A stretch of DNA of 64,000 nt, from positions 45,587 through 109,586 of IMG/VR virus record IMGVR_UViG_3300047444_000783. One strand, written 5' to 3'. Position numbers and translations under genes: made by a program. Below, piece by piece: positions 54,483-58,833 of this stretch. Position 1 is the stretch's first letter, and the number at the start of each line of letters is the position of its first letter. Below the pieces are notes generated by a model, which had not been told where the DNA came from, searched no databases, and was given only the letters and a program-made list of their open reading frames with translations. Source of the stretch: a virus.

Positions 54483-54553
54483 CTGCCCCGGCAGGAATCG
54501 GACCTGCGCTTCCGGATTCAAAGTCCGGCGCCTCACCATTCGGCCACAGGGCA
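54483..54553 (-). tRNA. tRNA-Gln(TTG)
   Basis: Cloverleaf; CCGGA-CTTTGAA-TCCGG. Confidence 0.9.
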
Positions 54554-54557
54554 AAAG

Positions 54558-54642
54558 CGGAAGAGCGGGGGATCGAACCCCGATGACGCTCACGCGCCGC
54601 CGCATTAGCAGTGCGGACCCTTACCATTCGGGCCACTCTTCC
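54558..54642 (-). tRNA. tRNA-Ser(GCT)
   Basis: Cloverleaf with long variable arm. Confidence 0.92.
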
Positions 54643-54645
54643 AAG

Positions 54646-54717
54646 AGTCCACGGCCGGAATCGGACCGGCGATAATGGTTTTGCAGACCATCCCCTTAGC
54701 CATTTGGGTACGTGGAC
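54646..54717 (-). tRNA. tRNA-Cys(GCA)
   Basis: Cloverleaf; U73. Confidence 0.9.
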
Positions 54718-54720
54718 AAG

Positions 54721-54799
54721 TAGCCCCTGAGAGATTTGAACTCTCACCCTTTCGGATCCGGGTCTAAGCCGGACGTGTATGCCATTTCACCAAGGGGCC
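54721..54799 (-). tRNA. tRNA-Leu(TAG)
   Basis: Cloverleaf with variable arm. Confidence 0.9.
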
Positions 54800-54803
54800 A
54801 AAG

Positions 54804-54883
54804 TGCCGGCCACGAGAGTTGAACTCGTACCCTTTCGGATCCGCTCTTAAGGCGGATGCGTCTGCCTGTTCCGCCAGGCCGGC
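54804..54883 (-). tRNA. tRNA-Leu(TAA)
   Basis: Cloverleaf with variable arm. Confidence 0.9.
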
Positions 54884-54887
54884 AAAG

Positions 54888-54978
54888 AGGAAGCGGTGAG
54901 ATTCGAACTCACGAGATAGCCTTTCAACTACCCGCCGGGTTTCGGGTCCGGTGTCTTAAACCACTCGACCACGCTTCC
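54888..54978 (-). tRNA. tRNA-Ser(CGA)
   Basis: Cloverleaf, long variable arm, C33. Confidence 0.85.
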
Positions 54979-54981
54979 AAG

Positions 54982-55066
54982 TGCGAACGGAAGGATTTGA
55001 ACCTTCGTAGCCCCAAGGGGCAACAGTTTTACAGACTGCCGTCGTTGGCCGCTTGACTACGTTCGC
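54982..55066 (-). tRNA. tRNA-Tyr(GTA)
   Basis: Cloverleaf with variable arm. Confidence 0.92.
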
Positions 55067-55069
55067 AAA

Positions 55070-55153
55070 TCCCGAACAACAGACTTGAACTGTTACGCCT
55101 TGAAGGGGCACCGGGTTTTGAGTCCGGCGTGTCTACCGTTCCACCAGTTCGGG
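55070..55153 (-). tRNA. tRNA-Leu(CAA)
   Basis: Cloverleaf with variable arm. Confidence 0.9.
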
Positions 55154-55164
55154 TGATTTTTGAT

Positions 55165-55260
55165 TTACAGGGATTGACAATAACTGAGGCGTAATGAGGG
55201 TCGCAAGCGGAGTGAGCGCAGGAAACGGTCGATCATGTGGCGAACTGTAATCTTTCGCAT
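55165..55260 (-). CDS. Putative leader peptide of tRNA operon C (31 aa)
   Basis: MRKITVRHMIDRFLRSLRLRPSLRLSYCQSL; ATG 7 nt after the -10 box; Leu/Ser/Tyr/Cys/Gln codons match downstream tRNAs. Confidence 0.7.
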   Translation of the reverse strand: MRKITVRHMIDRFLRSLRLRPSLRLSYCQSL

Positions 55261-55267
55261 GGGGGCC

Positions 55268-55296
55268 ACTTTAAATCCTTTTGTCCAGGATGTCAA
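55268..55296 (-). promoter_or_regulatory. Sigma70-like promoter of tRNA operon C
   Basis: TTGACA-17 bp-TAAAGT. Confidence 0.75.
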
Positions 55297-55368
55297 GCGC
55301 CTGCGGAGAATCGAACTCCGGATCGTCGTCTTAGGAGGACGCTGCTCTGTCCGCTGAGCTACAGGCGC
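55296..55368 (-). tRNA. tRNA-Arg(CCT)
   Basis: Cloverleaf. Confidence 0.88.
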
Positions 55369-55370
55369 GA

Positions 55371-55441
55371 TACCGAGGCTGGGAATCGGACCCAAATATC
55401 TGGATACACAGGCCAGCATTCTGCCATTGAATTACCTCGGC
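55371..55441 (-). tRNA. tRNA-His(GTG)
   Basis: Cloverleaf; no encoded G-1 or C73. Confidence 0.8.
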
Positions 55442-55444
55442 GCA

Positions 55445-55518
55445 TGCCAGCGGTGGGGTATGATCCCACAGCCCTCCGCTTAAAAGGCGGTTACTCTGTC
55501 CGTTTGAGTTACGCTGGC
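55445..55518 (-). tRNA. tRNA-Lys(TTT)
   Basis: Cloverleaf; A54/T58 T-loop. Confidence 0.85.
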
Positions 55519-55520
55519 GA

Positions 55521-55592
55521 TGCCACGGGTGGGGATTGGACCCACGACGCCCGGCTTTTCAGACCGGCGCTCTACCACTGAGCTACCGCGGC
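55521..55592 (-). tRNA. tRNA-Phe(GAA)
   Basis: Cloverleaf. Confidence 0.9.
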
Positions 55593-55625
55593 AAGCAGAT
55601 CGCGCGGTCATAGACCGCGTCTACA

Positions 55626-57060: not shown

Positions 57061-57131
57061 AGCCACAGCCGGGAATTGAACCCGAGTATCTCGCTTACCA
57101 AGCGAGTGCCTTACCACTCGGCCACTGCGGC
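57061..57131 (-). tRNA. tRNA-Thr(GGT)
   Basis: Cloverleaf. Confidence 0.92.
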
Positions 57132-57134
57132 GAA

Positions 57135-57207
57135 AGCCAGCGGGGAGAATCGGACTCCCGACCTGTGCGTTACGAGTGCACTGCTCTACCAATTGAGCTA
57201 CGCCGGC
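57135..57207 (-). tRNA. tRNA-Thr(CGT)
   Basis: Cloverleaf. Confidence 0.9.
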
Positions 57208-57210
57208 AAA

Positions 57211-57282
57211 TTGCCCCGGGGAGAATTGGACTCCCGACCCTTGGCTTATGAGACCAGTGCTCTACCTCTGAGCTACGGGGCG
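57211..57282 (-). tRNA. tRNA with CAT anticodon (fMet / Met / Ile2 identity unresolved)
   Basis: Cloverleaf; C1xA72 mismatch; T31-G39. Confidence 0.85.
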
Positions 57283-57284
57283 AC

Positions 57285-57321
57285 AAAAAGAAAGGCCGAA
57301 ACCTTGTTCGGGTTTCGGCCT
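57285..57321 (-). terminator. Intrinsic terminator / attenuator directly upstream of tRNA operon B
   Basis: AGGCCGAAACC/GGTTTCGGCCT 11-bp stem followed by TTCTTTTT. Confidence 0.88.
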
Positions 57322-57346
57322 GGACTTTCCGGATTTTGCTGTCTGC

Positions 57347-57481
57347 TTATCCGGTAACCCCAGGCACGCGCGTACCCATGATATTTCGATCATGAGTGCG
57401 TTCGACCTGGTGTTTAAAAGACATAAGTATCTCGTATAATTGCCGACGGCCAGCGGTCTGACCGTCAGAGCAGAAAGGCAT
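57347..57481 (-). CDS. Putative leader peptide of tRNA operon B (44 aa, or 25 aa from ATG 57424)
   Basis: MPFCSDGQTAGRRQLYEIL-MSFKHQVERTHDRNIMGTRVPGVTG; lies between promoter and terminator. Confidence 0.7.
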   Translation of the reverse strand: MPFCSDGQTAGRRQLYEILMSFKHQVERTHDRNIMGTRVPGVTG

Positions 57482-57509
57482 TTCAGAACATCAACACAAG
57501 TAGATTCTG

Positions 57510-57537
57510 ATTATCCACAACTCGTGCTGGCTGTCAA
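57510..57537 (-). promoter_or_regulatory. Sigma70-like promoter of tRNA operon B
   Basis: TTGACA-16 bp-GATAAT; overlaps TTATCCACA. Confidence 0.72.
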
Positions 57538-57560
57538 GCGCTTCCTAATATTTTAGGAAG

Positions 57561-58193
57561 CTACGCTGCTTCCGGCAACGCGGCTCCCGCTTTCTTCCCG
57601 TACTTCCGAATGATCAACTTCTCGATGACCGCGCGTTCATCGTCCTTCGCGACCTCGAGCAGCCCGGCCAGAAACATCTTGGTCGTCCGCGGCAGGTATT
57701 CGGTCACCCGCTTCTTCCGCTTGGCCTTCCGGATCCCCGCCCGTTCTTCGTACGCCCGGATGGCGGCGGTTATCCGCTTGCCGGCGCGGGAGTCGTACTT
57801 GCCGCCTCCATCTTCAATGTCATCCGGGTTGCGTCCACAGAGCGCGACGATCAGACGCCGACGGGGCGTCAACGACGGATCCGGAATCTCCAGTTGGTTT
57901 CGGCCGGCCATCAGTTCGACAAACTTGGCCTGGATCTCCGACTCCGCCTGGAAATACAGCCAATAGATTTCGCCGGCCAGCCACTGCCCGCCCTCGTGCT
58001 CCCGGTCGGCCGCAACCCAACGCTCGACGAATGTCAGGACATTCGGGTCGACGATCCGGTGCGCGTCCGGCTTTCGCGCCCCTAGTTTCTGAACTAAGCG
58101 TACGACCTTCTGATCGCCAAGAATGATCTGCTGTTTCGGCAGATGGATCGCCCTCGGCCGTACTCCCTCTTTAGTACTCATATGGTCCTCCAA
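57561..58193 (-). CDS. Hypothetical basic protein between tRNA operons
   Basis: 210-aa ORF; likely ATG after GGAGGACC. Confidence 0.7.
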   Translation of the reverse strand: MEDHMSTKEGVRPRAIHLPKQQIILGDQKVVRLVQKLGARKPDAHRIVDPNVLTFVERWVAADREHEGGQWLAGEIYWLYFQAESEIQAKFVELMAGRNQLEIPDPSLTPRRRLIVALCGRNPDDIEDGGGKYDSRAGKRITAAIRAYEERAGIRKAKRKKRVTEYLPRTTKMFLAGLLEVAKDDERAVIEKLIIRKYGKKAGAALPEAA

Positions 58194-58330
58194 GTTTAAT
58201 TAATTAAACTATACTAAAAGGCTAGAACGGAAGACATAGGCGTGTCTGTCGGTCTGTGTCCGACAGAGTACTTAGGGCGGAGTAGGGCAGAAACGTGGTT
58301 GAAATAGGGTCAAATAGGGCTGAAACGCGA

Positions 58331-58419
58331 CACGGACGGCGCGATTCGAACGCGCAGCGCGACCATTACGGTCAACCGGTTTTGGAGACCGGTGCTTTCA
58401 ACCATTCAGCCACGTCCGT
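58331..58419 (-). tRNA. tRNA-Trp(CCA) with long variable arm
   Basis: CCGGT-CTCCAAA-ACCGG; variable stem GACC/GGTC; A1-T72, G73. Confidence 0.85.
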
Positions 58420-58423
58420 AAAG

Positions 58424-58496
58424 TACCCTCGGCACGACTTGAACGCGCAACCCTGCCGGTAGAAACGGCTCGCTCTTTCCGTTGAGCTACGAGGGC
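58424..58496 (-). tRNA. tRNA-Arg(TCT)
   Basis: Cloverleaf. Confidence 0.88.
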
Positions 58497-58500
58497 AAAG

Positions 58501-58573
58501 TAGACCTCCCGAGAGTCGAACTCGGCGCCTCCGCATTGCAAGTGCGGCGCTCTCCCAGATGAGCTAGAGGCCC
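58501..58573 (-). tRNA. tRNA-Ala(TGC)
   Basis: Cloverleaf; G3-T70. Confidence 0.92.
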
Positions 58574-58580
58574 AGACAAG

Positions 58581-58652
58581 TAGGGATGTGGAGAATCGAA
58601 CTCCAGAAAGCCGGTGCCCAAGACCGGAGCCATACCACTTGGCGACATCCCT
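58581..58652 (-). tRNA. tRNA-Pro(TGG)
   Basis: Cloverleaf. Confidence 0.88.
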
Positions 58653-58657
58653 AAAGC

Positions 58658-58686
58658 AAAAAAAAGACCAGCGGTTTCCGCTGGCC
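58658..58686 (-). terminator. Intrinsic terminator / attenuator directly upstream of tRNA operon A
   Basis: GGCCAGCGG-AAA-CCGCTGGTC followed by T8. Confidence 0.9.
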
Positions 58687-58711
58687 TGGGCGATCGTTTT
58701 GTAGGGGCAGC

Positions 58712-58795
58712 CTACATAACGCCTCCCTGGCTAACGGTCGGCCACGGTCTCGCGGCTGCCGCTGGTACTGTCTGAGTGGAGAATGATGTGAACAT
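58712..58795 (-). CDS. Putative leader peptide of tRNA operon A (27 aa)
   Basis: MFTSFSTQTVPAAAARPWPTVSQGGVM; core codons CCA GCG GCA GCC GCG AGA CCG TGG CCG. Confidence 0.78.
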   Translation of the reverse strand: MFTSFSTQTVPAAAARPWPTVSQGGVM

Positions 58796-58805
58796 GTCGG
58801 ATCTG

Positions 58806-58833
58806 ATTATCCATAAGTGGAGAGGAAGTGCAA
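58806..58833 (-). promoter_or_regulatory. Sigma70-like promoter of tRNA operon A
   Basis: TTGCAC-16 bp-GATAAT; shares TGGATAATCAGA with the operon B promoter. Confidence 0.68.

Follow-up and report, generated by a model that had tools for sequence, protein, structure and literature searches.

Roster leader peptides precede the three tRNA blocks of a phage array and suggest control by ribosome-mediated attenuation

The tRNA array of this 110-kb phage consists of three promoter-led blocks, and each block is preceded by a short open reading frame (ORF) encoding a roster, that is, an unbroken run made up only of the amino acids of its own block, with every one of them present. Considering the anatomy of the array, the roster statistics, the conservation and co-variation in a related phage, and the competing pairings of the leader RNA, we think it likely that the array forms three transcription units, each governed by translation of its roster leader peptide, through a ribosome-mediated attenuation that reports decoding capacity.

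The window analyzed here is a 64,000-nucleotide stretch of the phage genome, to which all positions refer. ARAGORN identified 32 tRNA genes at 54482-58652, all on the minus strand and covering 20 of 20 amino acids. The elements of the three units are as follows.

58806-58833, minus strand: promoter A (TTGCAC, 16 nt, GATAAT), from the sequence
58712-58795, minus strand: leader ORF A, 27 codons
58725-58763, minus strand: leader A region 1 (58763-58758), conserved hairpin (58756-58741) and region 2 (58738-58725), from masked and truncated folds
58665-58690, minus strand: leader A region 3 (58690-58678) and intrinsic terminator (58687-58665), then a T run
58329-58652, minus strand: block A, tRNA-Pro(TGG), Ala(TGC), Arg(TCT) and Trp(CCA), from ARAGORN
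57510-57537, minus strand: promoter B (TTGACA, 16 nt, GATAAT), 11 of 12 consensus positions
57347-57424, minus strand: leader ORF B in its conserved form, 25 codons
57293-57368, minus strand: leader B alternative hairpin (57368-57316), overlapping the base of the intrinsic terminator (57321-57293)
55296-57283, minus strand: block B, 20 tRNAs for Met, Thr, Val, Lys, Gln(CTG), Arg, Asn, Gly, Asp, Glu, Ile, Phe and His, from ARAGORN
55268-55296, minus strand: promoter C (TTGACA, 17 nt, TAAAGT), 10 of 12 consensus positions
55165-55260, minus strand: leader ORF C, 31 codons, with no terminator after it
54482-55153, minus strand: block C, tRNA-Leu(CAA), Tyr, Ser(CGA), Leu(TAA), Leu(TAG), Cys, Ser(GCT) and Gln(TTG), from ARAGORN

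Promoter A has a weak -35 box and is absent from the promoter-scan listing. The 12-mer TGGATAATCAGA is common to promoters A and B and has no other site in the 110-kb genome. Promoter C overlaps the 3' end of tRNA-Arg(CCT). The distance from the -10 box to the start codon is 10 nt in unit A and 7 nt in unit C; the mRNA of unit C is therefore probably leaderless, and judging from the sequence, the start geometry of units A and C is probably of the leaderless type. A clear Shine-Dalgarno sequence is absent from all three leaders. Regarding the extent of leader B, the first-pass annotation had read it as 57481-57347; its downstream end stood, and the conserved ORF is in fact 57424-57347. Intrinsic terminators lie between the leader and the first tRNA in units A and B, at the places where they had been noted before, and a terminator scan gave no intrinsic terminator after leader C or in the corresponding unit of the related phage. 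The stop codon of leader C is located 11 nt ahead of the first tRNA of block C.

The roster of leader A is the run PAAAARPWP at 58765-58739, which names four of the four amino acids of the Pro/Ala/Arg(TCT)/Trp block behind it. Leader B contains an 18-residue run at 57418-57365 in which each of the 13 amino acids served by the 20 tRNAs of its block appears, and the last seven codons of leader C, LSYCQSL (55188-55168), give five of five (Leu, Tyr, Ser, Cys and Gln). To count chance occurrences, the entire genome was translated in six frames (219,168 positions), and a run qualified if it was composed solely of the amino acids of a block and covered them all. This count revealed 70 qualifying runs for block A, one for block B and four for block C, and for each of the three blocks the longest run in the genome is the leader. 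A blind scan, in which every gap was tested against every block size, returned solely the three leader-block pairings that the first-pass annotation had proposed, with E-values of 2.5e-3 (A), 1.4e-5 (B) and 6.4e-4 (C). In this phage and in its relative alike, a table of leaders against blocks is filled strictly along the diagonal, and permutation of the amino-acid labels gave at least two pairings in 0 of 400 trials. These analyses confirmed that the roster match is real and far beyond chance.

A search with the portal protein led to a 107-kb relative, G001, whose portal is 67% identical. G001 contains three matching promoter-leader-block units, each leader with a roster, and its promoters and terminators correspond to those found here: TTGACA-16-GATAAT occupies the promoter A position, promoter B is conserved, and 8 nt take the place of 7 nt at promoter C. 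Conservation of the leaders in homologs had been set beforehand as a test, and each of the three ORFs proved to have kept its start, stop and frame. The indels that separate the two phages measure 3, 6 and 6 nt within the leader ORFs and are not multiples of three outside them; such preservation of the frame, along with that of the start and stop codons, is a sign that the leaders are translated. A 17-nt core of leader A is identical, and in leader B the order of residues has diverged while the composition has been kept. Co-variation of leader and block was seen for tRNA-Gln(TTG), which belongs to block C here and to block B in G001. The C roster reads LSYCQSL here, with CAA as the Gln codon, and LSYCSSL in G001, and the Gln codons of leader B are CAG only here and CAA plus CAG in G001; the leader content thus tracks the moved tRNA-Gln between the two phages. 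The Asp residue in leader B of G001 pointed to a tRNA-Asp that had been missed by default ARAGORN and Rfam, and the gene was recovered with relaxed ARAGORN settings.

Two independent genomes of this lineage have been found. Portal alignment and tRNA-Ser pattern searches added merely the same phage from another sample, and a comparison of the array DNA with the phage GenBank collection gave nothing but generic tRNA matches. For the 206-aa ORF that separates block A from block B, a few homologues were found, with tRNAs absent at the one locus examined, and none of 125 loci encoding A1-type protein homologues had a nearby tRNA array.

The first-pass annotation had described the leaders as codon-matched, a description that the codon counts did not uphold. 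Given the amino acids, the frequency of cognate codons is at or below the expectation from the codon usage of the phage itself, and synonymous codons in the leaders are not enriched overall for the anticodons of the block; the leader-block match is at the amino-acid level. Block-appropriate codons were seen only for Arg and Gln, both of which are split between blocks. The Arg codon of leader A is AGA, which block A can decode with its tRNA-Arg(TCT) and which accounts for 4% of the Arg codons in the long ORFs of the phage; enrichment of rare codons in the leaders was not significant overall. The C rosters contain several Ser and Leu codons that are unreadable by the block C tRNAs under standard wobble.

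The RNA of leaders A and B is strongly structured. Compared with shuffled sequences, the z-score of the fold is -4.3 for leader A and -5.9 for leader B, and it lies between -4.3 and -5.9 for these leaders overall, with 0 of 200 shuffles equally good. Leader C folds worse than its shuffles (z = +0.8 here and +1.35 in G001), and its C/G ratio of 1.94 here, the 99th percentile of the genome, and 1.89 in G001 places it at about the 99th percentile. Modelling of leader A predicts mutually exclusive 1:2, 2:3 and 3:4 pairings, likewise in G001 despite a different terminator sequence, and in this respect the attenuator-type architecture suggested earlier for the array is predicted for leader A of both phages; leader C has no terminator. 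In the models, region 2 of leader A pairs with 8 of 10 nt of the terminator 5' arm here and 6 of 9 nt in G001. When a ribosome is modelled on the roster codons, region 2 binds the terminator 5' arm before the 3' arm has been transcribed; when it is modelled at the stop codon, this pairing is lost in both phages. Leader B has a layout of three hairpins in common with G001, and its antiterminator overlaps the terminator by only 3-6 nt.

For leader translation, the direction of the switch, the part of Rho in unit C and the physiological trigger, we infer the following scheme. The ribosome on the leader would have to decode, without interruption, every amino acid for which a tRNA is encoded downstream, and scarcity of any such aminoacyl-tRNA would make it linger in the roster. 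In units A and B, a stalled ribosome would allow the segment just downstream to pair with the 5' arm of the intrinsic terminator, and with this arm sequestered, RNA polymerase would read into the tRNA genes; upon fast decoding, the ribosome would reach the stop codon and melt the pairing, and the terminator would form. The outcome would be negative feedback on tRNA supply, separately for each block. Leader C, being without a terminator, needs a different mechanism. Its probably leaderless, unstructured and C-rich ORF, with the roster in the final seven codons, would fit a Rho route, where a ribosome paused on those codons would keep Rho from loading; from its sequence features, unit C may act through Rho. 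A link of the array to anticodon nucleases may also be envisaged as part of the trigger.

The same parts could operate with the opposite polarity, in which a stalled ribosome frees both arms of the terminator, so that shortage closes the block and smooth or absent translation opens it, as a feed-forward check that translation works. This agrees with equilibrium folding, where the terminator wins whenever the ribosome is stalled on the roster: for leader A, the probability of the terminator is 0.03 without a ribosome, 0.9-0.98 with the ribosome at roster codons 12-19 and 0.2-0.3 near the stop, and a copy of the terminator 5' arm within the roster codons is able to pair with the 3' arm. Equilibrium folding counts against the main scheme, and so does the barrier that would keep the antiterminator in place, which is moderate in this phage (6.8-9.8 kcal/mol) and low in G001 (2.8-4.4 kcal/mol). 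However, equilibrium folding ignores the order of RNA synthesis, and the default-on fold of leader A is not conserved, since G001 is terminated without a ribosome. As positive feedback upon shortage would also have no evident use, we regard this polarity as improbable. We give equally little credence to the idea that the leaders are translated and act post-transcriptionally, where ribosome occupancy would set the processing or stability of the tRNA precursor (access of RNase E or RNase P), or would govern how Rho loads in each of the three units. The hairpins would then be terminators of the ordinary, leaky sort. The short distance from the leader C stop codon to the first tRNA in a unit lacking a terminator, the unstructured and C-rich leader C of both phages and the weak antiterminators of leader B would fit such an action, but the strong structure of leaders A and B and the complete competing pairings of leader A in two phages with different terminators speak against it.

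Direct binding of tRNAs by the RNA without a ribosome, as a T-box carrying several specifier codons would do, is very improbable. Roster codons are inherently complementary to anticodons, but the match follows the amino acid instead of the codon, and the preservation of the frame across indels, as of the start and stop codons, indicates translation. In addition, an Rfam search at E-values up to 1 gave no T-box, riboswitch or regulatory-leader family; besides tRNAs, the permissive output comprised sub-threshold matches to unrelated models overlapping tRNA genes. That the leaders are chance ORFs beside ordinary promoters and terminators can practically be dismissed: short ORFs are common in sequence of 58% G+C, but the genome-wide run counts, blind scan, diagonal table and permutation contradict this view, as do the conservation and co-variation in G001.

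An unrelated 388-kb phage provides an independent example of a roster leader, in which a promoter and a 29-codon leader precede a block of Lys, Lys, Gln, Leu, Val, Ala, Thr and Gln tRNAs (E = 1.2e-4). A weak match in the 371-kb phage G002 was discounted because it is the tail of an 86-aa protein. T5, MD18, XacN1 and other arrays were negative in the roster scan. T5 resembles this phage in carrying an A1-type DNA transfer protein and in having its tRNA region interrupted by promoters and small ORFs, and differs in the absence of a roster leader.

Multivalent leader-peptide attenuators are found in enterobacteria, such as those of ilvGMEDA (Ile/Leu/Val) and thr (Thr/Ile), together with those of trp, his, leu and phe. 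The present units resemble them in having a promoter and a short ORF in which the amino acids to be sensed are abundant; units A and B also have the intrinsic terminator before the genes, and exclusive 1:2/2:3/3:4 pairings are predicted for leader A. However, the targets here are tRNA genes instead of biosynthetic genes, the leaders list up to 13 amino acids about once each, whereas the enterobacterial ones repeat one to three, and translation in A and C probably starts in a leaderless fashion. TnaC of the tna operon and the mgtA and mgtCBR leaders are cases of Rho-dependent, ribosome-controlled attenuation. Unit C shares with them a short ORF whose last codons would hold the ribosome, adjoining unstructured C-rich RNA and no intrinsic terminator; it would differ in sensing tRNA supply with tRNA genes downstream, and the role of Rho here is putative. 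T-box riboswitches also sense tRNA status and control a terminator, but they do so through direct RNA-tRNA contact and a conserved T-box motif, which has no Rfam match here, and their targets are synthetase and amino-acid genes. The inducible 26-gene trn operon of Anabaena PCC 7120 is likewise a long accessory tRNA array expressed upon impaired translation; its control is at the promoter level, by direct repeats and the repressor TrcR, with attenuation, leader and terminator unmentioned (PMC8421152, PMC10272220). Literature searches found no published account of leader-peptide control of tRNA genes, in agreement with the first-pass annotation, which knew of no such description for phage tRNA arrays.

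The roles of phage tRNAs are debated between codon compensation and escape from tRNA-targeting defences, and the regulation of their genes is largely unknown (PMC10264068, PMC11464382, PMC11555353). We tentatively suggest that roster-leader attenuators could be a widespread, unrecognised gauge of decoding capacity, isotype set by isotype set, in large phages, with only the slowly decoded block being transcribed and the matching replacement set answering host shut-off, codon mismatch or tRNA-cleaving defence nucleases. On the practical side, one can read from a roster which tRNAs to expect in its block, as for the tRNA-Asp of G001. If the proposal is true, the phage would gauge how well the cell can decode and provide tRNAs as they are needed, classical attenuation would be extended to RNA genes under its control and to leaders that sense as many as 13 amino acids, and the debate would become testable in terms of which stress opens which block.

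The phage is represented by a single contig of 109,586 bp (58% G+C), the final 64 kb of which form the window, and encodes a portal protein, a major head protein, a terminase-like protein and a T5 A1-type DNA transfer protein. On the minus strand, ARAGORN detected 32 tRNA genes (54482-58652) that together represent all 20 amino acids, and the array is organized in three units (A, B and C), each comprising a promoter, a leader ORF and a tRNA block:

58876-58843, minus strand: terminator upstream of unit A
58833-58806, minus strand: promoter A, with a weak -35 box
58795-58712, minus strand: leader ORF A, 27 codons
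58687-58665, minus strand: terminator A (consensus scan)
Block A, minus strand: Pro, Ala, Arg(TCT), Trp
57561-58181, minus strand: ORF between block A and promoter B, 206 aa, no known family
57537-57510, minus strand: promoter B (consensus scan)
57424-57347, minus strand: leader ORF B
57321-57293, minus strand: terminator B (consensus scan)
Block B, minus strand: 20 tRNAs for 13 amino acids
56621-56833, minus strand: 70-codon ORF between tRNA-Val and tRNA-Lys, no family match
55847-55990, minus strand: 144-nt spacer between tRNA-Asp and tRNA-Glu, with a promoter-like site (55877-55850)
55296-55268, minus strand: promoter C (consensus scan), overlapping the end of tRNA-Arg(CCT)
55260-55165, minus strand: leader ORF C, 31 codons, with no terminator after it
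Block C, minus strand: Leu, Tyr, Ser, Leu, Leu, Cys, Ser, Gln(TTG)
52450-54027: T5 A1-type DNA transfer protein gene, converging on the array

The consensus scan thus detects two of the three promoters and both leader terminators, and a 12-mer, TGGATAATCAGA, is common to promoters A and B and occurs nowhere else in the genome. The 206-aa ORF has a few homologues (50-56% identity). A 68-aa ORF on the plus strand (54276-54482) also converges on the array, its end coinciding exactly with the last tRNA's 3' end; it contains four Cys pairs, is zinc-ribbon-like and gave no match in a search for its family.

The first-pass annotation had proposed that these tRNA operons are gated by codon-matched leader peptides sensing tRNA depletion. 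Leader A includes PAAAARPWP, leader B an 18-residue run with all 13 block-B amino acids, and leader C terminates in LSYCQSL. When the whole genome is translated in six frames, maximal runs that hold only the amino acids of a block and cover all of them number 70 (A), 1 (B) and 4 (C), and the leader is the longest such run for each block. A scan for these runs (rosters), pairing each gap of at least 45 nt upstream of any tRNA with all downstream block sizes and scoring runs from six-frame composition, returned exactly three matches, to blocks of 4, 20 and 8 tRNAs that tile the entire array; the other three such gaps, all within block B, gave no match. Cross-tabulating leaders and blocks gives a strictly diagonal table. 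Permutation of amino-acid labels yielded one match in 15 of 400 trials and two in none, against the three observed. Genome-wide run counts, scan and permutation together confirm three tRNA blocks, each with a matching leader. No roster match at E <0.05 was found in T5, Phaeobacter phage MD18 and part of XacN1 (67 tRNAs in total).

A related phage, G001, was found through its portal protein (67% identical) as an IMG/VR contig of 107,420 bp with terminal repeats. Its array (locus L161) has the same blocks in the same order, with promoters at the three homologous positions and a fourth ahead of a separate tRNA(CAT). Of its leaders, only A and B are followed by a terminator, and a 51-codon ORF replaces the 206-aa ORF. 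The roster scan again gave exactly three matches. Leader start and stop codons align between the two phages, indicating that the conserved B leader of the window phage starts at 57424. Indels are of 3, 6 and 6 nt within the leader ORFs and of non-multiples of three outside, and the B leaders differ greatly in residue order while keeping the 13-amino-acid composition. Two array changes, in tRNA-Gln(TTG) position and tRNA-Asp, are mirrored in the leaders. tRNA-Gln(TTG) ends block C in the window phage and lies in block B in G001; correspondingly, the C roster is LSYCQSL (Q = CAA) versus LSYCSSL, and the Gln codons of the B leader are CAG only versus CAA and CAG. The exception is a CAA close to the N-terminus of the G001 C leader, outside the roster. 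The G001 B leader contains Asp, while default ARAGORN and Rfam gave no tRNA-Asp in its array. Because of this residue, a 78-nt gap at the position of the window phage's tRNA-Asp was found to hold a tRNA fold with a GTC anticodon, called by relaxed ARAGORN: a non-canonical tRNA-Asp(GTC) (L161 6767-6843) whose anticodon stem is 4 bp and whose D-loop is long.

At the codon level the proposed matching was not borne out overall: given the amino acids, cognate codons show no excess over expectation (P = 0.07 to 0.99), and rare-codon use in the leaders is only marginal. Exceptions are found for the two amino acids divided among blocks, Arg and Gln. The Arg codon conserved in the A leader is AGA, even though AGA accounts for just 4% of Arg codons, and tRNA-Arg(TCT) is in block A; leader Gln codons track the blocks. 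The leaders are therefore better described as amino-acid-matched, with codon discrimination where needed.

Leaders A and B of both phages fold far better than shuffles (z = -4.3, -5.9, -4.5 and -5.5). Leader A was folded with a 28-nt ribosome footprint masked at each codon, as the transcript stands before the terminator 3' arm is made. When the ribosome sits on roster codons 11-16, regions 2 (58738-58725) and 3 (58690-58678) are paired, which covers 8 of the terminator arm's 10 nt; a ribosome at the last codons or at the stop codon abolishes the pairing, and a transcript free of ribosomes forms a 1:2 hairpin. Leader A of G001 repeats this logic despite a terminator of different sequence. In both phages leader B contains three hairpins, the middle one spanning the last codons and stop codon and overlapping the terminator base by 3-6 nt. 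At equilibrium, most masked states favour the terminator as soon as its 3' arm exists. Leaving the antiterminated fold would take an estimated 6.8-9.8 kcal/mol in the window phage and only 2.8-4.4 in G001. Classical attenuator parts are present in these predicted structures, but the direction of switching is inferred. As architecture, attenuation is a well-supported reading; as physiology, it is hypothetical.

In unit C, the ATG lies 7 nt (window phage) or 8 nt (G001) past the -10 box, which makes a leaderless mRNA probable, and the leader stop codon is 11 nt ahead of tRNA-Leu. Leader C RNA is unstructured, folding less well than shuffles (z = +0.8; +1.35 in G001), and with a C/G ratio of 1.94 (G001, 1.89) it lies close to the genome's 99th percentile. 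Our best guess is a putative Rho-dependent, tnaC-like device.

The region 58909-59017 (minus strand; L161 2541-2652 in G001) holds a 33rd tRNA, of anticodon CAT, which scores 36.8 bits with Rfam and which ARAGORN calls only under relaxed settings. This tRNA has its own promoter (59017-58989), with the -10 box ending 5-7 nt ahead of the first tRNA base, its own strong terminator (58876-58843) and no leader, an arrangement kept in G001; its transcript may begin at the mature 5' end or close to it. Since the anticodon stem is not initiator-like, it may be an elongator tRNA-Met or tRNA-Ile2. A tRNA-sized structured spacer between tRNA-Thr(GGT) and tRNA-Thr(TGT) (56991-57060, minus strand) is kept in G001 (L161 5841-5906), its long hairpin showing three compensatory base-pair changes, and further G001 spacers of 66-113 nt have long closing stems; such spacers may represent stable small RNAs of the type annotated in the T5 tRNA region. 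The 70-codon ORF and the 144-nt spacer are block-B insertions, both absent from G001.

No description of tRNA genes controlled by a leader peptide emerged from full-text literature searches. Closest is the Anabaena trn operon (PMC8421152, PMC10272220), which is induced by translational stress, with control at the promoter. The anticodon-nuclease trigger suggested in the first-pass annotation is made plausible by studies of phage tRNAs and anticodon nucleases, though these do not concern this locus. An independent roster leader (L169 1018-1232) occurs in G003, an unrelated 388-kb jumbo phage reached via A1 homologues:

L169 1018-1047: promoter-like site, the ATG lying 8 nt past the -10 box
L169 1056-1145: leader ORF, 29 codons
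L169 1157-1171: weak terminator-like hairpin

Lys, Gln, Thr, Ala, Leu and Val make up 23 of the 28 residues of the leader ORF, and the eight tRNAs that follow are Lys, Lys, Gln, Leu, Val, Ala, Thr and Gln (E = 1.2e-4). The scan gave nothing convincing in another G003 array or in the arrays of G002, a 371-kb phage, and hence the device, while not universal, recurs.
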